From Phycisphaerae bacterium (GTDB taxonomy: Bacteria > Planctomycetota > Phycisphaerae > UBA1845 > Fen-1342), in assembly GCA_016935035.1 (NCBI GenBank), contig JAFGRR010000196.1, positions 1 to 31,331 on the forward strand: a stretch of DNA of 31,331 nt. Direction: 5' to 3'. Made by a program: the position numbers and the translations under genes. Under the pieces are notes generated by a model that made no database searches, had not been told where the DNA came from, and worked only from the letters and a program-made list of their open reading frames with translations. Positions within the stretch are counted from its first letter, which is position 1; each line of letters opens with the position of its first letter. Shown one piece after another: positions 382 to 31,331 of the stretch.

Positions 382-2550
382 CTACTGCCCCGCAATAATC
401 GCCACAAACGCGTCAATATCAAACACGTCCGCCGTCCCGTCCTGGTCGCAGTCCGCCTGCATCACGTCGCAGCCCGGGTACGCCACGGCGTAAGTCGCCG
501 GCTCAGTGATCGCCAGGACAAATGCGTCAATGTCGAACACATCCGCGCTGCCGTCGCAGTCGCAATCGCCCAGCGGCCACCCGTCGAGCACTCGCACACG
601 CTGCAATTCGCCGTATCCGCTCGACCCCTGGATCGAGTCCCAGCCGCGCACCTGGTAGTAATAATCACCCGGCGACCTGCCAGTGACATCGTAGGAGGTC
701 CCTGACGTAACGACCGCCAGCGTCGAGATGCTGCCCCACGACGCCACCGGGTAGATGTCGTCAACGTAGAACTGCGACCCGCTCGTGCTAAGGCTGGCCG
801 TGTTGCGAAATCGCACCTGAATCCACTGCCCGGCGTAGGCCGACAGGTCGTACGTCCGCTGCACCCAGCCGCCGCTCGAACCCGTAAACTGCTCGAGTAT
901 GTCGAATGTGCGCCCGTTGGCCGTCACCTCGACAAAGGCCGCATCGTTGCCGCGTGTGATGTCGTACCACGCCCAGAAAGTCAGTTCATCGCCACCCGCC
1001 AACTGCAACGGCGCGGATGTCATGCCCGAGATTCCCGGCCCCAACAGCGAACTACCGATGCTGTGCGTGCCAGAATGCCCCAGGTCTGACCCCACCGACA
1101 TATCGAGAAGAGTCCACGCGCCACCGCCGGCTTCGGCATCGTCCGTAATGACCGACAAGCCTGCATATTCCCGGATGAAGCACATGCTGCTGCTCGCCCC
1201 GGGATTCTGCGGCTGCCACGAGATCGTGAAGTTGCCGTCAAGGTCGGTCGGGGGCACCGTCAGCACCGGCGGCGACACCCACGGCATCAACTGGCTCTGC
1301 ACGTTGGCGGCCTGGTTCAGCGCGTACAACGCCCCTTCCCAGTTTGCGTTCAGCACGCGCTGCAATTGATACTGCGACGGCTGAAATTCCGAGCAAAGCT
1401 CGATTGTGTATGGCAGCACGTTCCTGCCACTCTCGTAGTAGCGATACCCATAGAACCAGTCGTTGAAACCGCCGGTCGTGGCGTAAAGATCATGTGACTG
1501 CTGCGGATTGTACGTCCCGTCGCCGCCGTGCTGCGAGATTGCGTTGGCTATACCGGTGCCGATAGCGGACATCAACACATCGTCTGGCGTCGCGGATGTG
1601 CTATAGCCCCACGGCCACAACACCAGGCGGCTGAAAGTGTGGTATGAGATTGCGATGGAAACGTCCAAGGGCTCCATGAAATCGCGTATGGCCTGCGTCT
1701 CGAGTTCCGAAAAAGGTGCCGCACCGCAATAGGTGTCGAACCCCGGGTTGTGGCTCGTGGCCATTTGCGTGACAGAGCCCCACTCGCCGGTGACAAAGCC
1801 ATCGTATGAACCGCCGTAGTTGCGGTTGATGTCAACGCCGAACTCGCCGTATAGCTGCGGACTGCGGTTCTTGCGCCAGTCGTGTCCCTGGTCGTGGCTA
1901 TACACATAGCCATCGGGATTCACGCAGGGGAGCACCCAGATGCGCTGGCCGTTTACCAGGGCTGTGATCTCGGGATCGCTGCCGTAACCGTTTACCAGAC
2001 GCGTCGCCACGTCGAGCGCTGCTTCGAGGCTGGGCCACTCGCGTGCGTGATGCAACCCCATGAAGACGACGCCCGGCTCGCTCTCGTCCACGCCCGGATT
2101 GTCCGAAATCTCCAGGCACCAGATGTCGCGCCCCTCGTAGGTCTGCCCGATGGAGGTGAGCTGTGTGATCGTCGGCTGGCTCGCGGCCAGGCCGGCGATG
2201 AGCGTTTCGTATTGCGCGAGCGTGTGGTAGCTCGCCCGCACACCATCAGCGGCCCGCACCATGTCATCGACCAGGACGTCGAATGAAATCCCCGATGCGA
2301 TCAGTCGTTCAACATCCGACGCGGTCACCACGAGATCGAGCGAACGGCCGCTATCACCGACCGCCGCCACATCCCAATCCGACACTGCTTGTCGCACTAT
2401 GCCACGTGACAAGTCATCGTCAGCCTGCACGCGGATCAGGCTTCTGACCTCGTCAGCGGTCGCGGCGGCATGTTCCCACACTGGTTCACCGACCGTTGCT
2501 GCTGCCGTAAGAGTTGCACACAACACCAGCAATCCAGCTATTTGTCGCAT
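382..2550 (-). CDS. Secreted zinc carboxypeptidase (M14) with FN3/MAM-like module and C-terminal dockerin-like domain, 722 aa
   Basis: Intact M14 motifs: HHAREW (HxxE), WRKNR, GVDINRNY, SYHTFS (third Zn ligand), TIEL (catalytic Glu). Start reassigned to MRQIAGLLVLCATLTAAA (signal peptide) at 2550. Paired DxDxDG..DVFDIDAFV loops at the C-terminus. Confidence 0.9.
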   Translation of the reverse strand: MRQIAGLLVLCATLTAAATVGEPVWEHAAATADEVRSLIRVQADDDLSRGIVRQAVSDWDVAAVGDSGRSLDLVVTASDVERLIASGISFDVLVDDMVRAADGVRASYHTLAQYETLIAGLAASQPTITQLTSIGQTYEGRDIWCLEISDNPGVDESEPGVVFMGLHHAREWPSLEAALDVATRLVNGYGSDPEITALVNGQRIWVLPCVNPDGYVYSHDQGHDWRKNRSPQLYGEFGVDINRNYGGSYDGFVTGEWGSVTQMATSHNPGFDTYCGAAPFSELETQAIRDFMEPLDVSIAISYHTFSRLVLWPWGYSTSATPDDVLMSAIGTGIANAISQHGGDGTYNPQQSHDLYATTGGFNDWFYGYRYYESGRNVLPYTIELCSEFQPSQYQLQRVLNANWEGALYALNQAANVQSQLMPWVSPPVLTVPPTDLDGNFTISWQPQNPGASSSMCFIREYAGLSVITDDAEAGGGAWTLLDMSVGSDLGHSGTHSIGSSLLGPGISGMTSAPLQLAGGDELTFWAWYDITRGNDAAFVEVTANGRTFDILEQFTGSSGGWVQRTYDLSAYAGQWIQVRFRNTASLSTSGSQFYVDDIYPVASWGSISTLAVVTSGTSYDVTGRSPGDYYYQVRGWDSIQGSSGYGELQRVRVLDGWPLGDCDCDGSADVFDIDAFVLAITEPATYAVAYPGCDVMQADCDQDGTADVFDIDAFVAIIAGQ

Positions 2551-2703
2551 CACTGTGACTGCCCCGGAGCCCCCGATTTCGCACCATGCGGTCCCCTCAC
2601 AATAAGGAGACTCCCGACGACGCCGAATGCACGAACCTCGCGGTGCATGTCGCGTGTTCCATAGCCGCCGGGAAACGCACAACCCACCTACGATCGGCTT
2701 TCG

Positions 2704-16404: not shown

Positions 16405-16560
16405 GTGCACAGATTTCGCACGTGTCGCACGCGAATAACCGGACGTTGATCGTGAATACTCATGGGAGAGCAGTTCCAACGGCATAACCGTGCGCGGCCG
16501 GCTCGTCGCTTGGTCGAGAGCACGTCATGTCCTCGATTCGCCTCAAACGGGAGGTTCCCG

Positions 16561-17223
16561 ATGCAGAGAAACGCCCTCGGAACAGTGATCGCGGTACTGT
16601 CCACCGTGCTGGGTTGCCAGAATGGCGCCACGACGACCAGTAGCACCACCACTGGCAGCGGCGTGGTCAAGACCGAGTCACGCGCGGTGGCAGCCTTTGA
16701 TCGAGTCGAGTTGACTATTGCCGCCACGATTACCATCAGTGTTGGCGGCGAGCAGTCCATGGCCATCACTACCGACGACAACATCCTGGAGTTGATCACA
16801 ACCACTGTTGCCGACGGACATCTGGTGATCGGCTGTGAAAATACGATCAGCCCCAGCGTGCCGATCACGATCGACATCAGCATCCCCAGCCTGGCCGAGG
16901 TCAACCTTACCGGCGCTGGTACCATCTCCATCAGCGGCGTTAACAGCGAAACGCTTGAACTGGCCATCCAGGGTGCTGGTGATATCAACGTCAGCGGCAA
17001 GGTCGATGCGCTCGCGGCGCGCATCTCAGGCGCCGGCAACATCGGTGCGGCGGGGCTGGCCACGCGCGAGGCTGTTGTGCGCCTCACCGGCACAGGCAGT
17101 GCAAGCGTGAGTCCGACTGAAACGCTGGACGCGATCATCACTGGCGTTGGCTCGATCACGTACGCCGGCGACCCGGAGGTAACCCAGAAAATCTCCGGCA
17201 TTGGCACTGTGCGCAGACGCTGA
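16561..17223 (+). CDS. Lipoprotein with head GIN (DUF2807) beta-helix domain
   Basis: Lipobox VLG-C, followed by GSGVVKTESR..AFDRV, DDNILELI, and periodic L.G.G.I repeats ending GVGSITYAGDP. Confidence 0.85.
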   Translation: MQRNALGTVIAVLSTVLGCQNGATTTSSTTTGSGVVKTESRAVAAFDRVELTIAATITISVGGEQSMAITTDDNILELITTTVADGHLVIGCENTISPSVPITIDISIPSLAEVNLTGAGTISISGVNSETLELAIQGAGDINVSGKVDALAARISGAGNIGAAGLATREAVVRLTGTGSASVSPTETLDAIITGVGSITYAGDPEVTQKISGIGTVRRR

Positions 17224-17284
17224 TTGTCCGTGGTGAATGCAGACGACCGTAACGTCAGGTCCAACAGACAAGAGGGACGGCACT

Positions 17285-17959
17285 ATGAACAGAACACTGC
17301 AACTAGCAACACTGGGATTGATCGGCGCGGCGATGCTGGGCTGCGCGGGACAAACCACGGTCATGATCAACGGCATGCCGCCGACGCACGGCAGTGGCGT
17401 GCTGGTGAGCGAGTCGCGGACGGTCGAGGGCTTTAACGCCGTCACGCTCAAGGGCTCTTCAGACGTCACGATTGAAATCGGCGAGGCGCAGTCAGTACAG
17501 GTCACCGCCGACGACAACCTCCTGCCGCTAATCAGCACGGAGGTTCATGACGGTTGTCTTGTCATCGGTGCGCAGGGCTCGTATACGACGAGGCAGAGGA
17601 TCAAGGTGGCGATCGTAAGCCCAGAGCTACGCGAGGCCGAGATTCACGGCTCGGGTGATATGAACATCCAGGGCGTCGGCGGCGAGTCACTGCATCTGGT
17701 GATCGAGGGCAGCGGTGATATCAATGCCGCCGGCACGGTGGACACCGCCAGGCTGGTGGTCGACGGCTCCGGCGACATCAACGCTAGCAAACTCAAGGCC
17801 CGCCATGTCGTGGCGGAAGTTAACGGCAGCGGCAACATTCGGGCCCACGCCGACGAGGAGTTGGATGCGGCCGTGAACGGCAGCGGCGACATCCGTTACA
17901 GCGGCAAGCCAAACCTGGTCAACAGGGCCGTCAGCAGCGGCACTATCCGGCACGAATAG
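17285..17959 (+). CDS. Lipoprotein with head GIN (DUF2807) domain, tandem paralog
   Basis: Lipobox MLG-C, followed by GSGVLVSESR..GFNAV, DDNLLPLI, GSGD repeats and GSGDIRYSGKP. Confidence 0.85.
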   Translation: MNRTLQLATLGLIGAAMLGCAGQTTVMINGMPPTHGSGVLVSESRTVEGFNAVTLKGSSDVTIEIGEAQSVQVTADDNLLPLISTEVHDGCLVIGAQGSYTTRQRIKVAIVSPELREAEIHGSGDMNIQGVGGESLHLVIEGSGDINAAGTVDTARLVVDGSGDINASKLKARHVVAEVNGSGNIRAHADEELDAAVNGSGDIRYSGKPNLVNRAVSSGTIRHE

Positions 17960-18224
17960 CCTCTGAATCCGATAGCCACACCCGACGCGCGGCGACGCGG
18001 ACACTTCTATACTGTGTCGAGAACCACAGCTCCAAGTGGGCGATTTACACCGCTTTCTTGCGCCACTTTTGGCTGCTGTTCTGTTAACATCGAAGTTGCG
18101 CACGGGGCCGCGCGTCAAATCTGGCGGCTAAGCGTCTATTTGCCGGCAACGGGGCTTGGCGAATCTACAGCCACCGGCAAACAGCACATCGGATAAGCTG
18201 GTGAAACCGAAGGAGGCACAAGCC

Positions 18225-20474
18225 ATGCGAACGCGGAACACCCAACGGACATCGCACGCGGCAATCGCCCTGCTCGCGATATTGCTCGTCTCGGTCGGCG
18301 CGTCGGCGGACGTGCTCGACGCCCGCTTCTACCAAATCGACTTCATGCAAGGCGCCGACACTCTAATTGACTCGGATTGGGGCACGTTAGTACTCGAGTT
18401 CGACGGCGCGCCAGACTTCCAGTATTTGAACCTGGTCGTCGACGGCATGTGGCGAATTCAGAACATCCCGGTCTGGAGCCTGCAAGGCCCGAGCGCCGTC
18501 AACCAGATGAGCTTCAACTTCCCGCTCGGCACGCCTGCCGGCGTGGACGTGCCGATGCTGGTCTACTCGGCGGAGTTGACCGCCGAACCGCTATTCACCG
18601 CCCCAGGCGGCGTAACCACCGATGCTTTCGTCGAACCACGCAGCGTCACCATCGGCGGCTTGGGTGGCCCGGTCGGCCCGCTTCCGCCGGCCACGCCGCT
18701 GATCGGCTGGATTCCCGTCCGGTGGTCGTTCAACGATGGCTTCAACGACTACAACCAGGACGTCGGTGTCGACGAGTGCGTACCAGGTGCGTTCTCGAAC
18801 AGCCTTAGTTGGCTGGATGCGATCAACCCCGCGCTCAGCATCCCGGAAGGCCTGAAGAGCGTTGAGGGGCTGAAGGAACCAACCGGCTGGGTACCGCCCG
18901 CGGTCGACGATTTCGGCGATCCGATTCCCGGCACCGGCGGAACGGGCGTCGATGCCTGGCAGGGCAAGGGTGCGGCGCTGGCCGGCTATGTCACCACACG
19001 CTACTTCGATATCAGCCAGGCCGACAGCATTTTCGACGAGTTGGACGACGATCAGGACGTCGAATTGTGGGGCGACCATCACGCGGCCGTCGTCAGCGGC
19101 ATGGTCCAACACGCCGACGGCACCTACACAATCTACGTCACGCACGACACCAAACAGGGCGAGGACGGCGGAACGGTAACCGAGCCGATTACCTACAACC
19201 CGACGACCGGTGATGTCACGGGCGGGGCGCCGGGCTTTTTCTCCGGCTCGCCGTTGCGCGGTTTCGTGGTCGAATGCCCCGTGGAGCCGACCGAGACGAC
19301 GTATACGTTCAGCCAGATCGACTTCGAGCAGGGCGCCGACACCGTCATGGACTCCGACTGGGGCACTCTGGCCTTGACGTTCGAGGGCACACCCGACTTC
19401 CAGTTCGTGAACCTGAGCGTCGACGGCATATGGGTGATCCAGGATGTCTGCGTGTACAGCTTTGAAGGTCCCGGCACAATGCAGACGCAGCTCCTCAACT
19501 TCCCGCTGGGCAACCCGCCCGGCATGGACGTCATGAGCATCAACTATGCCGCTTCGCTTACACCCGCGCCGCTGGGGGCGCCGCCGGCAGATCCGCCGAT
19601 ATTCGGCTTGGTGACCGGCCGCGCGGTGACGGTCGGCGGCCTGGACGGCCCGATCGGCTACATCCCGCCGCCGTTCCCAATCACGGGTTGGTTACCCGAC
19701 CGATGGTCCGACAACTACGAATTCGCTTCGCACAACCAGGAAGTCGGTGTTGACGAGTGTGTTCCAGGCGCGTTCTCCAACAGCCTGCAGAGCCTCGATG
19801 AACAGAATGACCATATCGACATTCCCGCCGACAAGAAGAGCGTCGAGGGGCTCAAGGGCCCGACGGGCTTCACGTCTCCGACCACAGGCTCCGACGGCAA
19901 ACCCACCCCCGGCACCGGCGGCACTGGCGTCAATGCCTGGCAGGGCAAACGTGACTCCGTGAAACAATGGGTCACGACCCGTTACTTCGACATCAGCAAA
20001 ATCGACAACGTCTTTGATGAAATCGACGATGATCAGGATGTCGAGCTCTGGGGACACCACCACGCCGCGATGGTCGTCGGCATGATGAAGCACCCGAATG
20101 GCAAGTACTCGATCCAGGTCGCCCACGACACCAAGCAGGGCCAGAAAGGCGGCACGGCCATCGAGACCATCACCTATGACCCCGCGACCGGAGCCGTCGA
20201 GGGCGGGTCACCCGGGTTCTTCTCCGGGTCGATGCTGCGCGGCTTTGTGGTCGAATGTCCGCGACCACCGGGAACTGTCGGCGATGCCAACGGCGACGGC
20301 GTCGTCGATGTGTTCGACATCGACGCCTTTGTGCTCGCGATCACGAATCCGGAGTTGTTCGAGCTGTTGTACCCGGACGCGGACATCTCGCTGTGCGACA
20401 CCAACGGCGACGGCGTGGTGGACGTGTTCGACATCGACTCGTTTGTCGAGCTGATCGTCGGCGGCGGGCATTAG
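18225..20474 (+). CDS. Secreted 749-aa protein with two tandem copies of an unknown beta-rich domain plus putative papain-like peptidase module, and a C-terminal dockerin-like domain
   Basis: AAGGAGG RBS before ATG 18225 and a signal peptide ending GASA-D. Repeats at about 18327-19280 and 19308-20261 share QIDF, DSDWGTL, NQ.VGVDECVPGAFSNSL, DQDVELWG.HHAA.V.G, HDTKQG and GFVVECP. The dockerin tail starts at 20280. Confidence 0.8.
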   Translation: MRTRNTQRTSHAAIALLAILLVSVGASADVLDARFYQIDFMQGADTLIDSDWGTLVLEFDGAPDFQYLNLVVDGMWRIQNIPVWSLQGPSAVNQMSFNFPLGTPAGVDVPMLVYSAELTAEPLFTAPGGVTTDAFVEPRSVTIGGLGGPVGPLPPATPLIGWIPVRWSFNDGFNDYNQDVGVDECVPGAFSNSLSWLDAINPALSIPEGLKSVEGLKEPTGWVPPAVDDFGDPIPGTGGTGVDAWQGKGAALAGYVTTRYFDISQADSIFDELDDDQDVELWGDHHAAVVSGMVQHADGTYTIYVTHDTKQGEDGGTVTEPITYNPTTGDVTGGAPGFFSGSPLRGFVVECPVEPTETTYTFSQIDFEQGADTVMDSDWGTLALTFEGTPDFQFVNLSVDGIWVIQDVCVYSFEGPGTMQTQLLNFPLGNPPGMDVMSINYAASLTPAPLGAPPADPPIFGLVTGRAVTVGGLDGPIGYIPPPFPITGWLPDRWSDNYEFASHNQEVGVDECVPGAFSNSLQSLDEQNDHIDIPADKKSVEGLKGPTGFTSPTTGSDGKPTPGTGGTGVNAWQGKRDSVKQWVTTRYFDISKIDNVFDEIDDDQDVELWGHHHAAMVVGMMKHPNGKYSIQVAHDTKQGQKGGTAIETITYDPATGAVEGGSPGFFSGSMLRGFVVECPRPPGTVGDANGDGVVDVFDIDAFVLAITNPELFELLYPDADISLCDTNGDGVVDVFDIDSFVELIVGGGH

Positions 20475-20497
20475 GCGGCGGAGGTGCAACCACGAAG

Positions 20498-20554
20498 ACG
20501 GCCGACGAGACGTCGGCCGCTACACTGGTCGTCAGGCACGGCGGCCTGATGCTA
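20498..20554. repeat. Composite GTAG-type REP doublet between convergent genes
   Basis: ACGGCCGACGAGACGTCGGCCGCTACAC (20498-20525) is identical to 12923-12950. It is followed by CGTCAGGCACGGCGGCCTGATGCTAC. Both units read GTAG-palindrome on the minus strand. Confidence 0.88.
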
Positions 20555-26689: not shown

Positions 26690-26759
26690 CAATCATCTGC
26701 CGGCCACCAGCGCGGTGCCGGCCCCTATCTGTCAAACCGTTTGGTCGGAGGGCTCGCAC

Positions 26760-29700
26760 ATGCGCGCCGTCAAGTTCGCCGGACTGTTGAGCATCGTGGT
26801 CGTGACCGGTCTGACGCTGTCAATTGGTGAGCCGCCAAGTGCCCACGCCGCAGATAGTTATGGTGCGATCAAGGAACGGGCCGAGCAGTATTACACGGAG
26901 GGGTCATACCAGCGTGCGTATGAGCTCTACACACAGGCCACCAAGCTCGAACTGCCGCCGGTAGAACGGCGTTGGGTGGAACTCCGTATCGCGGACACGC
27001 AGTGGCGCGGCGAAGGCGGCACGAGTACCACCGACGACGCCCGCCGCGTCAAGGCCAGCCAGTCCCTGGCTACGCTCATTTCCGCCCGCGACCGCGTGGT
27101 CGACCATGATCGCGTCTGGGCCGAGGCTCACGAATCGCTGGGCGACTACTGCTGGCAGACCAACCGACTGCGCGACTGGCATCAGGCGTGGCAGCACTAC
27201 GCGTCCGCCCTGGAATGGTGGGCGTCGTCGCCCGACATTGAGTTGGCGCGCGCACGCTATCTCCGGATCGTCCGCAAGGTCGCCGAGCCGGCCGACGGCG
27301 GCTACTGGCAAAACAGCTGGGACTACCACTTCGGCTATCACTGCCGCTCGATCCCGCTGGACGTGCTCAGCAACGCGGAGAAGATCAGCACCAAGCCGGA
27401 GGACATCGCGCTATCGAAGTACCTGCTGGCCATGCACCTGCGGCAGCAGGGAGACTGGCGGCAGCAACGCCGCATCGCACCCGCGTTCGACGCCGCCCTC
27501 GAACACGCCGCCGGCACGGAGTGGTATGACGACGCCCTGTACTTCTACGCACAGTGGCTTTCACAGCGGGGACGGCCGGTATTGCAGCCCAACGGCAGCT
27601 ACACTTTCGAGCGTGATTACGTCAAGGCGGTCGAGCTGTACCGCCGACTGCTGGACGAGTTCGAGAAAGGCGACACGCGGTTCTATGACCGTGCCACCGA
27701 CGAGCTGAAGGAAATCGTCTCGCCGCGCGTTGGCGTGTATGTCGCGACGATCTTCGTGCCGGGCTCGGAAATCCAGTTTCAGGCGTCCTGGCGCAACGTC
27801 GAGACCGTGACATTCTCGATTTTCGCCGTCTCCCTGGTTGAAGACATCGACTTCAAGAGCAAGAACGTCGTGATGCCGGGCGAGCACCCGATTGACCTTG
27901 CCGGGCGTGAACCATTGCTAACCTGGAAACACCCAACCGGCGACAAGGGCGACCACGTTCCGGGGCAGGATCAGATCACGGTCGACCAAAAGCTACTGCC
28001 CGGGGCGTACGTGCTCGAAGCGCGTGCCGGCGGTGAACGAGCCCATACGCTCATGATGGTGACCGACATCGTCGCGGTGCTGAAAACTTCGGCAACGCAG
28101 GCGCTCGTCTACGTCTGTAACGCCGACGACGGTTCGCCGCGGCCGGGCGCTAATGTCACGTTGTGGAAACACCATCGACAAGATGACCGCCCGCCGGTGT
28201 GCAAGAAATCCCGCTCAAACGACGATGGCTTGGCCATGTTCGAGATCGAGAACGATTGGGATTGGCGCGAAATCTACGCCGCCGCCCAGGACGACGATCG
28301 CCAGGCCTTCGCACGCACGGACAGGCACTACGGCAACACTAAGGGCGAGTGGCGCATATACGTCTTCACCGACCGTCCCGCCTATCGCCCCGGTGACTGG
28401 GCTCGTTGGAAGCTCATCGCGCGACGCTATCAGAACGGCACTTACTCCACGCCCGCCGACCGCGAGTTTACCTACAAGATCTCCGACGCGTGCGGCAACG
28501 AGATCGAGAAATCCACCGTCAAGTTCAACGCCTTCGGCAGCGGTTGGGGCACGCTCGAGCTGACCGACAAGATGCCGCTCGGCGAATTCCACGTCGAGTT
28601 CTTCGAGGGTGCCGACAGCGTCGGCCGCGCGACCATGTTCCGACTGGAGGAATACAAGCTCCCCGAATTCAAGGTGACCATCGAGACACCCAAGGACGAA
28701 CAGGGCCAACCGCGCGCGTTCCGCCTCGGCGAAAGCGTCGAGGTCGAGATCTCGGCGGAATACTACTTCGGCGGCCCGGTCGCCGACGCGGACGTGCGGG
28801 TAATCGTGTATCAGAGCCCCTACTACCACTACTGGACGCCGCCGCACGAGTTCGGATGGTACTACGAGGACATGGGCGGCCGCCCGTACTACTGGGGTTA
28901 TGGCCAGCAGACCGTCAAGGACGAACACATCCAGACCGACTCGTCCGGCAAGGCCACCATCCGCTTCGACACGCCGCACGGCGCCAACCAGGACTATCAA
29001 TACCGCATCGAGGCACGCGTGACGGACGCCTCGCGCCGCGAGATCGTCGGCAATAGCAGCATCCGCGTCACGCGTCAGAGCTACTACGTGCACATGCGGC
29101 CGGAGCACAACCTCTATCGCCCGCAGGACACGGTGAAAATCGAGGTCAAGGCGCTCGACGCCAACGAGCAGCCGCAAAGTGTCACCGGCACCATAACCCT
29201 GACGCGTGAGCGCTGGACCGAAATCTGGCTCGACTCGGACGGCAAGGAAGTCTCGGGCGACGAGCTACGCGAGCGCCGCCTGGGCTGCATCATCTGGCCG
29301 CCGATACCCGAGCCCGGCCGGGCCGACTGGCGGCTGAAGTTCCGCGGCTATGAACGCGAGGAGCTGCTGACGCAGACCGTCACAACCGACAAGGACGGCA
29401 ACGCGACGTTCAAGTTCGAGCCCGAGCGTGAGGGATACTACCGCTGCGCGTGGGTTAGCATTGTCGATGGCGAAGGGCCGGTGCAGGCGGAGACGACCGC
29501 TTGGGCCGCGACGGAGGATTCGCGGAATCTCGGCTTCCGCCCGGGCCGTGTGGACATCATCGTTGATCGCGACACGTTCCACAGCGGCCAGACGGCGCCG
29601 GTCATGCTGACCGTGCCGACCAATGACCGCTATGTGCTCTTCACGCTCAGCGCCGACGACCTGTACAGCTACCAGGTGGTGCACGTCACGGGCGATGCCA

Positions 29701-31331
29701 AGCTGCTGGAGGTGCCGATCACCTCACAGCATGTGCCGAACGTGTATCTTGACGCGGCCATGGTCAGCGAGCGACAGATCTTCACCGACACGGAGCAGGT
29801 CGTCGTGCCGCCGGTGGAAGAGTTCCTGACCGTAGACGTCGAGGCGAACAAGGAAGCCTATGAGCCGCGCGAGGAAGGCACGCTGACGGTGCGTACGCGC
29901 GACCATGAGGGTAACGCCGTCGCGGCGGAGGTGGCGCTCAGCCTGAGCGACGAATCTGTGTACTACATTCAGCAGGACTACGCGGGCGATCCGCGGCAGT
30001 TCTTCTACGGCCGCAAGCGCGGCCAGGAAACGCGTCTCGGCAGCATGCTCGACCGGCTGCGGTTCATGCGGCTGGTGCGCGACAAGCATGGTGAAGTCGT
30101 CGATGAGGTCAGCGAACTCCGCGAACGCTGCGCTCGGGACCTGAAGCCCGTTGACGAACTCTCGATAGATGCCACACACGGCACCCGCAGGGGCGATATA
30201 TCCCTGGGATTCGGTGAATTCGACCAGTACCGAATGGCCGGCCGCGGCGGCGGCGCCGTGTTTGAGGCGGCAAGCCTACCCATGGCAGGGGGCAGCCGCG
30301 AGCGTGCTTTCAAGTCGGACTTGTCCGACGGCGAATGGATGTACTCATATGGCGCACTCAACACTCCGCCGCCGCCGCCACCGAGTATGTCTGAGCCCGA
30401 AAGCGGCGACTTTGTTGCCACGGAGACGGTCCAGGTTCGCAGCGACTTTCGCGCGACGGCTCTGTGGGAGCCGCTGATCGTCACGGACGCCGACGGCTAT
30501 GCCACCCTGCCGGTGACGTTCCCCGACTCGCTGACGAGTTGGCGGGCGGTGGCGCGGGCGGCGACCACCGAGACGCAGATCGGCATTGGCAACGCGACGG
30601 TTCGCACGCGCAAGCCGCTGATCGTGCGTTTGCAGGCGCCGCGTTTCTTCCTGGTCGGCGACACAGTCACTGTCTCCGCCGTCATGAACAACAACACCGA
30701 CGAGGCGCTGCGCGTGCTGCCGGCGCTGGCCGCCGAGGGCTTGCAGATCGAGAGTTGGCGCCGCGGCGAGGAATGGGTCGCGGGCGAACCGGAGCCGATC
30801 ACGATCGCGGCCAACGGCGACGCGCGCGTTGACTGGCAGGTCCGCGTGACCGAGCCAGGGACGGCCAATCTCAAGGCTGTCGCTCGCGGCAAGGAGTATG
30901 CCGACGCCATGCAGCGCGAGTTCGTCGTCTACGAGCACGGCATCGACAAGCTGGTGGCCAAGTCCGGCAATGTGCGCGGCGATGATGTGACGGTCACGCT
31001 CAACATCCCCGCCGAGCGCAAGCCCGAATCGACGACGCTGACCGTGCAGGTGACGCCCAGCGTCGCCGTCACCATGCTCGACGCCCTGCCTTACTTGGTC
31101 GATTACCCGTACGGCTGTGTGGAGCAGACCATGAGCCGCTTTCTGCCGGCGGTCATCACGGCCAAGACGCTCAATGACCTCGGACTCGAACGCGAGATCG
31201 TCGCAAACAAGCTCTTCGGCGGTATCGAACAGGACCCGGAGACGCTCAAACACGTCGGGCAGCGCAACCTGGAGAAGCTCGACGACGTGGTCAGCGCGAG
31301 CCTCAAGCGGCTATACGATGCGCAACGCCAG
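26760..31331 (+). CDS. Bacterial alpha-2-macroglobulin with intact thioester motif; partial, at least 1524 aa, runs off the window edge
   Basis: The frame translates open from ATG 26760 (MRAVKFAGLLSIVVV...SAHA) to the window end. MG motifs FTDRPAYRPGD and FRLEEYKLPEF, post-bait RSDFRATALW and FPDSLTSWR, VRLQAPRFFLVGD, and thioester YPYGCVEQTMS (Cys codon 31116). It is absent from the ORF track because there is no stop codon. Confidence 0.95.
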   Translation, partial: MRAVKFAGLLSIVVVTGLTLSIGEPPSAHAADSYGAIKERAEQYYTEGSYQRAYELYTQATKLELPPVERRWVELRIADTQWRGEGGTSTTDDARRVKASQSLATLISARDRVVDHDRVWAEAHESLGDYCWQTNRLRDWHQAWQHYASALEWWASSPDIELARARYLRIVRKVAEPADGGYWQNSWDYHFGYHCRSIPLDVLSNAEKISTKPEDIALSKYLLAMHLRQQGDWRQQRRIAPAFDAALEHAAGTEWYDDALYFYAQWLSQRGRPVLQPNGSYTFERDYVKAVELYRRLLDEFEKGDTRFYDRATDELKEIVSPRVGVYVATIFVPGSEIQFQASWRNVETVTFSIFAVSLVEDIDFKSKNVVMPGEHPIDLAGREPLLTWKHPTGDKGDHVPGQDQITVDQKLLPGAYVLEARAGGERAHTLMMVTDIVAVLKTSATQALVYVCNADDGSPRPGANVTLWKHHRQDDRPPVCKKSRSNDDGLAMFEIENDWDWREIYAAAQDDDRQAFARTDRHYGNTKGEWRIYVFTDRPAYRPGDWARWKLIARRYQNGTYSTPADREFTYKISDACGNEIEKSTVKFNAFGSGWGTLELTDKMPLGEFHVEFFEGADSVGRATMFRLEEYKLPEFKVTIETPKDEQGQPRAFRLGESVEVEISAEYYFGGPVADADVRVIVYQSPYYHYWTPPHEFGWYYEDMGGRPYYWGYGQQTVKDEHIQTDSSGKATIRFDTPHGANQDYQYRIEARVTDASRREIVGNSSIRVTRQSYYVHMRPEHNLYRPQDTVKIEVKALDANEQPQSVTGTITLTRERWTEIWLDSDGKEVSGDELRERRLGCIIWPPIPEPGRADWRLKFRGYEREELLTQTVTTDKDGNATFKFEPEREGYYRCAWVSIVDGEGPVQAETTAWAATEDSRNLGFRPGRVDIIVDRDTFHSGQTAPVMLTVPTNDRYVLFTLSADDLYSYQVVHVTGDAKLLEVPITSQHVPNVYLDAAMVSERQIFTDTEQVVVPPVEEFLTVDVEANKEAYEPREEGTLTVRTRDHEGNAVAAEVALSLSDESVYYIQQDYAGDPRQFFYGRKRGQETRLGSMLDRLRFMRLVRDKHGEVVDEVSELRERCARDLKPVDELSIDATHGTRRGDISLGFGEFDQYRMAGRGGGAVFEAASLPMAGGSRERAFKSDLSDGEWMYSYGALNTPPPPPPSMSEPESGDFVATETVQVRSDFRATALWEPLIVTDADGYATLPVTFPDSLTSWRAVARAATTETQIGIGNATVRTRKPLIVRLQAPRFFLVGDTVTVSAVMNNNTDEALRVLPALAAEGLQIESWRRGEEWVAGEPEPITIAANGDARVDWQVRVTEPGTANLKAVARGKEYADAMQREFVVYEHGIDKLVAKSGNVRGDDVTVTLNIPAERKPESTTLTVQVTPSVAVTMLDALPYLVDYPYGCVEQTMSRFLPAVITAKTLNDLGLEREIVANKLFGGIEQDPETLKHVGQRNLEKLDDVVSASLKRLYDAQRQ

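Follow-up and report, generated by a model that had tools for sequence, protein, structure and literature searches.

The described proteins closest to the one considered here are papain-fold cysteine peptidases. The gene in question occupies positions 18225 to 20474 of a 31,331-nucleotide stretch of DNA (the window, read along the forward strand) from a Phycisphaerae bacterium of the Planctomycetota (assembly GCA_016935035.1, contig JAFGRR010000196.1). Its 749-residue product is termed P0001. Members of the Peptidase_C39_2 family (PF13529; for example 3erv from Bacillus anthracis, YvpB-type) share with P0001 a papain-fold core, a Gln-x(6-7)-Cys motif at the start of a helix, and His and Asp on adjacent strands. 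Staphopains (family C47; 8oig, 1cv8 and 1x9y) are secreted bacterial endopeptidases of clan CA, and they too have an all-beta region N-terminal to the catalytic domain. T-Mac C0362, from Treponema denticola TDE0362 (9arc; PMC11833123) and of the IdeS/Mac-1 family C66, has the same layout as P0001, with an immunoglobulin (Ig)-like sandwich of approximately 115 residues, a short linker and a papain-fold protease. In the crystallized C0362 fragment, a 9-residue linker connects an Ig-like domain termed "N-120" to the papain-fold domain (PMC11833123). The C39 bacteriocin-processing domains (PCAT1, ComA, LahT; PF03412) contain a minimal papain-fold core with the same order of Gln, Cys, His and Asp.

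It is likely that P0001 is an exported, probably surface-tethered enzyme built from two complete C39-like or staphopain-like clan CA units, each composed of a beta-sandwich, an ordered linker and a catalytic domain. As such, P0001 is a divergent member of an enzyme superfamily that is already very well known, and would not surprise a specialist. Nonetheless, P0001 and its homologues differ from each of the described groups. Unlike PF13529 proteins, they have an obligate N-terminal Ig-like sandwich and linker, form tandem arrays, possess additional invariant residues (K248, D278-x-E280, Q311 and E350 in the first unit of P0001) and have a longer spacing of 22 residues between His and Asp. Compared to staphopains, identity is only 10–12% with no sequence match, and the sandwich does not match the fold of the staphopain prodomain. 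P0001 also has tandem units and a dockerin-like tail, whereas staphopains lack a dockerin or PEP-CTERM tail, and no staphostatin-like neighbour is found beside P0001. C0362 lacks sequence similarity to P0001, and its catalytic domain is of the larger Mac-1 type, with a Lys/Glu-assisted site and Asn. It belongs to a host-associated pathogen and targets host immune components. Finally, PF03412 domains are cytoplasmic, are N-terminal in ATP-binding cassette (ABC) exporters and cut double-glycine leaders, whereas P0001 is exported via a signal peptide, has neither a transporter domain nor a transporter neighbour, and carries approximately 60 extra decorating residues.

Two papain-fold units in P0001

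The preliminary description, made from the DNA sequence alone, proposed a duplicated unit of approximately 320 residues in P0001. The protein indeed contains two units of 325 residues, unit A (residues 30–355) and unit B (residues 356–680), which align without gaps at 60% identity (E 1e-138). Both contain the motif N-Q-x6-C-V-P-G-A-F-S-N-S-L, as well as W-G-(D/H)-H-H-A-A and (T/A)-H-D-T-K-Q-G, and the two cysteine codons that had been proposed are exact in the translation (see the table). Residues are given below in unit numbering where stated; adding 29 gives P0001 numbering for unit A (C156 = C185, H257 = H286).

An AlphaFold2 model of unit A, calculated from an alignment of 125 homologues (A1), has a predicted local distance difference test score (pLDDT) of 97.0 and a predicted template modelling score of 0.94. 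In unit numbering, the model consists of a sandwich (1–113), an ordered linker (114–134) and an alpha+beta domain (135–326). The beta-rich domain of approximately 135 residues and Pro/Gly linker anticipated in the preliminary description thus correspond to a seven-strand sandwich plus linker. The nucleophile candidate C156 is the first residue of helix 156–171, as had been predicted, and opens the central helix of the modelled papain fold. At the level of secondary structure, H257 opens strand 258–267, and H278-D279 close the next long strand (272–279), the strand that was expected to end in HD.

Comparison of residues 135–326 with representatives of the PDB returned 46 chains with Z of at least 8, and all 46 top matches listed are papain-fold proteins. 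The best match is 22oc_A, titled "P210 CD lyase" (Z 13.4), followed by staphopain C (Z 13.0), the pseudomurein endoisopeptidase PeiR (Z 12.9), prostaphopain B (Z 12.4), the C39-like peptidase 3erv (Z 12.2), PCAT/LahT-type peptidase domains (Z 11.8–11.9) and the ComA peptidase (Z 11.5). Interpain, SpeB, IdeS, cathepsins and UfSP appear lower in the same list. Foldseek matches of the whole unit to the PDB are weaker, with T. denticola C0362, IdeS and staphopains on top. C0362 is the best of these (E 3e-5), but global superposition is poor (template modelling (TM) score 0.25, root mean square deviation >20 Å), indicating that the orientation of the domains differs. Among Swiss-Prot models, the fold matches are staphopain-type extracellular cysteine proteases and UfSP1/2. 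The best match among AlphaFold DB clusters, W0RVN9, covers the whole unit (E 7e-32, TM 0.87, 30% identity) and has the automatic UniProt name "Peptidase C39-like domain-containing protein"; the second cluster match is a PEP-CTERM protein. A feature search of the ESM Atlas retrieved clan CA families only at scores below 0.9, which serve as leads and not as evidence.

The statement in the preliminary description that the units belong to no named family holds for curated resources. Apart from a sub-threshold match of the dockerin-like tail, Pfam and NCBIfam contain no model that matches full-length P0001, unit A or unit B, even when matches up to E 10 are admitted, and none of the 125 homologous units matches NCBIfam. 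Searches of PDB sequences with the protein, a unit profile and a catalytic-domain profile gave chance matches only: the tail retrieved EF-hand and dockerin chains, and the remaining matches were to dynactin and a dynein-like ATPase (E 0.2–1.5). Peptidase_C39_2 (gathering cut-off 24 bits) is not matched by P0001 or by either unit at E<=10. However, it is the sole recurrent Pfam family among the 125 homologous units, matching 41 at E<=1 and 15 at E<=1e-3 (best 7.3e-7), and the conserved Gln is the very first residue of the match in the homologue P0025. The link of the P0001 units to Peptidase_C39_2 is therefore transitive only, since homologues match the model and the P0001 units do not. Membership in C47 or C39/PF03412 was not supported. 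There is no Pfam Peptidase_C47 match, and likeness to staphopains is structural alone (Z 13.0 at 11% identity). For C39/PF03412, P0001 has its own signal peptide, no ABC domains and no ABC exporter neighbour. With regard to transglutaminase-like enzymes, Transglut_core is not matched by P0001 or the 125 units, no transglutaminase is among the 50 structural matches listed, and weak likeness is confined to the N-terminal sandwich (that of protein 4.2).

Because structure, transitive sequence similarity and residue conservation agree, the assignment to a C39-like papain fold, first made in the preliminary description, is supported. The structural matches at Z 11–13.4, the indirect Pfam link, the name of the AlphaFold DB cluster and the conserved residues all point to it.

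The genome of the Phycisphaerae bacterium encodes a single protein that passes the Peptidase_C39_2 cut-off (L056, G000:C683:279-1022; 247 residues, 35.6 bits). L056 has a Q-x6-C motif near its N-terminus and no obvious signal peptide, and is not detectably similar to the family of P0001. An hhalign comparison with the catalytic-domain profile was insignificant (probability 0.8%), though the G-H motif lined up. L056 belongs to a different, probably cytoplasmic, branch of C39-like proteins.

Family distribution, conservation and duplication history

When 1.84 billion representative proteins (50% identity clusters) were searched exhaustively with unit A by HMMER, at least 428 clusters matched at E<=1e-3, of which 77 reached E<=1e-30. 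Almost all of the matches span the whole 320-residue unit. By comparison, a word-index search for homologues found only one relative. A scan of 185,579 species genomes with a motif for the Cys region, derived from a 15-sequence alignment, identified 47 loci, all in metagenome-assembled genomes. Bacterial loci are found in Phycisphaerae and other Planctomycetota (closest 48% identity), Zixibacteria, Acidobacteriota, Myxococcota, Gemmatimonadota, Ignavibacteria, Bacteroidales, Caldisericia and Coatesbacteria, and archaeal loci in Thermoplasmata, ANME-2 and Hermodarchaeota. Within the Planctomycetota, the unit was matched in six of 401 sampled genomes; the distribution is therefore wide but patchy. 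In the metagenome-assembled genome that contains the window (4.2 Mb, 68.6% complete), the gene encoding P0001 is the sole carrier of the unit. Thus the family is large and undescribed and lacks a curated model and any experimental study, and its members, spread over many phyla, are confined to uncultured bacteria and archaea.

The order Gln, Cys, His, Asp is conserved among homologues and intact in both copies in P0001, as the preliminary description had noted for the two diverged copies. In unit numbering, Q149 is present in 119, C156 in 124, H257 in 125 and D279 in 124 of the 125 homologous units of alignment A1. Conservation is equally high at N148 (123/125), K219 (124/125), E251 (123/125) and Q282 (125/125), and D249 and E321 are kept just as strictly as the catalytic residues. 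The same pattern is seen in a set of 163 units, in which most multi-unit relatives conserve it in each of their repeats. Since the catalytic residues are conserved in both copies, both units are predicted to be catalytically active.

Most homologues are simple in architecture. A single near-full unit is present in 142 of 150 representative homologues and two or three units in six; in the multi-unit proteins the whole of the sandwich and catalytic domain is repeated. By crude patterns, 123 of the 150 have a hydrophobic N-terminal segment, approximately half end within 10 residues of the unit, approximately 18 have a PEP-CTERM-like end and approximately 10 have dockerin-like loops. Pfam confirmed PEP-CTERM in P0012 and Dockerin_1 in P0017. 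Nearly all members of the family appear to be secreted.

A maximum-likelihood tree built from 35 units places A and B of P0001 as sisters (support 99/97), with P0002 and P0003, which have a single unit each, beside them. For P0007, P0008, P0011 and P0016, by comparison, units cluster according to their position in the protein, which points to a separate, older array. Judged from this tree, the duplication in P0001 is lineage-specific and tandem arrays arose separately elsewhere in the family. The ratio of nonsynonymous to synonymous substitutions (dN/dS) between A and B is 0.26 overall, 0.32 for the sandwich and 0.22 for the catalytic domain, with dS near saturation. Both copies are therefore kept under constraint by purifying selection.

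Tandem repeats and surface-anchoring tails are typical of adhesins, and it could be imagined that the units are catalytically dead binding modules, which would make P0001 a surface adhesin of pseudo-peptidase domains. Such a role finds some precedent in P0008 (1521 residues, three units), where Ser replaces Cys in units 2 and 3 and Val replaces Gln in unit 1; these repeats may be degenerating or may have switched to a Ser nucleophile. Of the other multi-unit relatives, P0007, P0011 and P0016 have the full catalytic set in all of their units, and P0024 retains Cys, His and Asp in both units, with Val at the Gln position in one. However, near-invariant Gln, Cys, His and Asp over 163 units of many phyla, including both copies in P0001, would not persist in a pseudoenzyme, and dN/dS is lowest in the catalytic domain. 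Dead modules are thus highly improbable.

Candidate mechanism and alternatives

The N-terminal sandwich is folded with confidence when modelled alone (pLDDT 94) and is generically Ig-like. Its best matches are Ig-like domains of glycoside hydrolase family 2 glycosidases (Z 6.4) and CARDB (Foldseek E 0.015), and there is weak similarity to the sandwich of the transglutaminase-like protein 4.2; matches at this level (Z<=6.4) are non-specific by the structural tool's own calibration. The sandwich of C0362 likewise has only generic Ig-like neighbours. Sandwich and catalytic domain have similar mean column identity across the family (28% and 26%, respectively), and the sandwich always precedes the catalytic domain. 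Given this equal conservation, the fixed order and the repetition of whole units, the sandwich is tightly integrated with the catalytic domain. It may serve as a prodomain, a chaperone or a substrate-binding part.

The first of these roles would make each unit a zymogen, with sandwich and linker acting as intramolecular chaperone and inhibitory prodomain, comparable to prostaphopain, proSpeB and procathepsins. Self-cleavage of the tandem polyprotein within its linkers would then free one peptidase in soluble form, and the other would stay anchored by the tail. The sandwich always follows the signal peptide directly and precedes the catalytic domain, which is where secreted clan CA enzymes carry their prodomains, and it co-occurs with the catalytic domain as one unit in 142 of 150 homologues, approximately half of which are just signal peptide and unit. 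The linker is modelled as ordered and has conserved glycines, and proenzymes (prostaphopain B, prointerpain, procathepsins) are among the structural matches. However, those proenzymes align over approximately 165 residues compared to approximately 160 for mature enzymes, indicating that their prodomains are not superposed, and the sandwich alone has no structural match to staphopain, C10 (I69) or C1 (cathepsin) prodomains. Conservation as high as that of the catalytic domain is unusual for prodomains. Moreover, the crystallized, E-64-reactive protease fragment of T-Mac C0362 includes its Ig-like N-120 domain (PMC11833123). A zymogen therefore seems unlikely.

The C-terminal 69 residues of P0001 contain two D-x-N-G-D-G-V-V-D-V-F-D-I-D loops. 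This tail matches Pfam Dockerin_1 (PF00404) below the cut-off (14.4 bits, E 0.046; cut-off 22.9 bits) and PDB dockerins at E 0.13–1.1, and it fails the cut-off of the GC-type dockerin model NF041540. Approximately 10 other proteins of the same genome pass PF00404. The tail itself (65–70 residues) has 94 matches in the genome, approximately 80 of them at E<1e-14 and nearly all at the C-terminal ends of long frames; one copy lies in an M14 carboxypeptidase encoded in the window. The tail looks like a lineage-specific, dockerin-derived tag for the sorting or anchoring of exported or surface proteins, and P0001 is a secreted protein that is probably held at the surface.

Under the favoured reading of P0001 as an exported clan CA enzyme, the sandwich would pack rigidly through the ordered Pro/Gly linker onto the catalytic domain. 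The chemistry would be the usual Cys-His-Asp thioester mechanism of the superfamily. C185 (C512 in unit B), with which the central helix begins, would provide the thiolate, activated by H286 (H613), which D308 (D635) would orient. The oxyanion hole would be formed by Q178 (Q505), seven residues ahead of the Cys, and the backbone amide of the Cys. In an extracellular substrate, most likely a peptide or isopeptide, the Cys would attack the carbonyl of a peptide, isopeptide or amide bond, forming a thioester that would be resolved by water. The invariant residues that are family-specific (K248, D278-x-E280, Q311 and E350 in unit A) probably shape the substrate site. The dockerin-like tail, common to approximately 90 other exported proteins of the organism, would anchor the enzyme at the cell surface; at its position, relatives in other phyla have PEP-CTERM or true dockerins.

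It is also conceivable that the papain-fold domain is non-proteolytic, serving as a cell-wall amidase or isopeptidase (a peptidoglycan or pseudomurein lysin directed against neighbours) or as an enzyme of the transglutaminase or acyltransferase type. Such a role would be consistent with PeiR as one of the top structural matches (Z 12.9), with several surveys that list Peptidase_C39_2 as a catalytic domain of phage endolysins, with one Atlas cluster with Peptidase_C39_2 that is 77% viral, and with the occurrence of the family in both bacteria and archaea of sediments. Further points in its favour are the weak likeness of the sandwich to the protein 4.2 and CARDB sandwiches, and the placement of BtrH-type acyltransferases and phytochelatin synthase in the same structural cluster (PMC10318531). 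However, the Z scores of proteases and PeiR lie within 1 unit and do not discriminate, and the nearest reviewed proteins are true extracellular proteases. No LysM, SH3b or PG_binding module was detected in P0001 or in the eight multidomain relatives scanned, and transglutaminases are absent from the top 50 structural matches. A non-proteolytic role is accordingly regarded as very unlikely.

Several observations nevertheless weigh against interpreting P0001 as a pair of surface-held C39-like peptidases. The P0001 units have no sequence match to any Pfam, NCBIfam or PDB entry. The top structural match, 22oc, is titled a lyase; a literature search for 22oc or "P210 CD lyase" was empty, and its chemistry was not used. 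Clustering of neighbouring genes across the 47 loci found none shared beyond close relatives, which gives no clue to the substrate. Papain folds with an intact triad also serve acyltransferases, transglutaminases, amidases and ligases, such that P0001 may not be a peptidase. As modelled, the active site could be obstructed by the ordered linker and the sandwich, which would make the unit a zymogen.

A more speculative proposal is that the family represents an undescribed class of exported, envelope-targeting enzymes exchanged among sediment bacteria and archaea (Phycisphaerae, Zixibacteria, Thermoplasmata, ANME-2, Hermodarchaeota), possibly isopeptidases or lysins that cut cross-links in the cell walls or S-layers of neighbours, with the Ig-like domain providing targeting. 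If so, tandem arrays would raise avidity on polymeric substrates. This proposal is considered distinctly unlikely.

The family comprises exported putative cysteine hydrolases of uncultured bacteria and archaea, many from anoxic sediments, where the extracellular enzymes of these organisms drive the turnover of organic matter. With its fixed unit of Ig-like and papain-fold domains, extra invariant residues and recurrent tandem arrays, the family is well suited to structural and biochemical study and to an entry of its own in Pfam or MEROPS. The understanding of clan CA is unchanged; the value lies in annotation and enzymology and not in concept.

Gene features and genomic surroundings

The open frame extends from 18156 to 20474 on the forward strand, with ATG 18225 as the likely start codon. 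Features of the gene and of the window are listed below.

Coordinates of the gene encoding P0001, its parts and other features of the window
Feature	Position	Strand	Basis
Tail copy in M14 carboxypeptidase	388..573	-	
M14 carboxypeptidase	382..2682		
DUF2807 protein, first	16462..17223	+	
DUF2807 protein, second	17237..17959	+	
Shine-Dalgarno-like AAGGAGG, 8 nucleotides before ATG	18210..18216	+	read off sequence
Coding sequence of P0001, 749 residues, stop included	18225..20474	+	frame and translation
Predicted Sec-type signal peptide, residues 1–28	18225..18308	+	basic N-region, hydrophobic core, A-S-A in translation
Unit A Ig-like seven-strand beta-sandwich, residues 30–142	18312..18650	+	AlphaFold2 models
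Unit A Pro/Gly-rich linker, residues 143–163, modelled ordered	18651..18713	+	pLDDT 94–97, conserved Gly positions
Unit A papain-fold C39-like domain, residues 164–355	18714..19289	+	AlphaFold2, conservation, structural search
Unit A codon Q178	18756	+	motif location
Unit A codon C185 (TGC)	18777	+	motif location
Unit A codon H286	19080	+	motif location
Unit A codon D308	19146	+	motif location
Unit B Ig-like beta-sandwich, residues 356–469	19290..19631	+	gap-free alignment to unit A
Unit B Pro/Gly linker, residues 470–490	19632..19694	+	alignment to unit A
Unit B papain-fold C39-like domain, residues 491–680	19695..20264	+	alignment to unit A, residue conservation
Unit B codon Q505	19737	+	motif location
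Unit B codon C512 (TGT)	19758	+	motif location
Unit B codon H613	20061	+	motif location
Unit B codon D635	20127	+	motif location
Dockerin-like C-terminal module, two D-x-N-G-D-G-V-V-D loops, residues 681–749	20265..20471	+	sequence and Pfam sub-threshold match
Multi-copy REP-like palindromic element just past stop, outside protein	20488..20526	.	contig depth
Alpha-2-macroglobulin	26715..31331	+	

The signal peptide, with predicted cleavage after A28 as read from the translation, was not mentioned in the preliminary description.

Upstream of the gene are two DUF2807 proteins and GNAT acetyltransferases. The DUF2807 pair ("GIN head", toastrack-like) consists of adjacent paralogues directly upstream with signal or lipoprotein-like N-termini, and is not conserved beside homologues of P0001. 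Downstream, on the opposite strand, are an extracytoplasmic function (ECF) sigma factor and a DUF1559-type anti-sigma factor, followed further downstream by a sigma-54 activator, a glycoside hydrolase and alpha-2-macroglobulin. The last of these is a protease-trapping protein encoded 6 kb downstream, and no evidence was found of a functional link to P0001. The ECF-type motif GAAC-N16-CGT is absent from the 265 nucleotides upstream of the gene, and a sigma-70 promoter scan found none; the only terminator-like match lies inside the coding sequence.

A sediment metagenome contains 91% of the sampled words of the gene and is probably its source; DNA runs with a low word share were not used to infer habitat. 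An exact 218-nucleotide contig (19550–19767) is present in a marine-sediment metatranscriptome library of another study, which is a weak hint of transcription. In two metatranscriptome runs of the source study, only the multi-copy dockerin-like and repetitive extragenic palindromic (REP)-like parts were covered. In the source metagenome, the palindromic element past the stop codon is highly multi-copy, with a summed contig depth of 618, compared to approximately 6 for the gene, and occurs with many different flanks. The high depth and varied flanks therefore fit a REP-like family.

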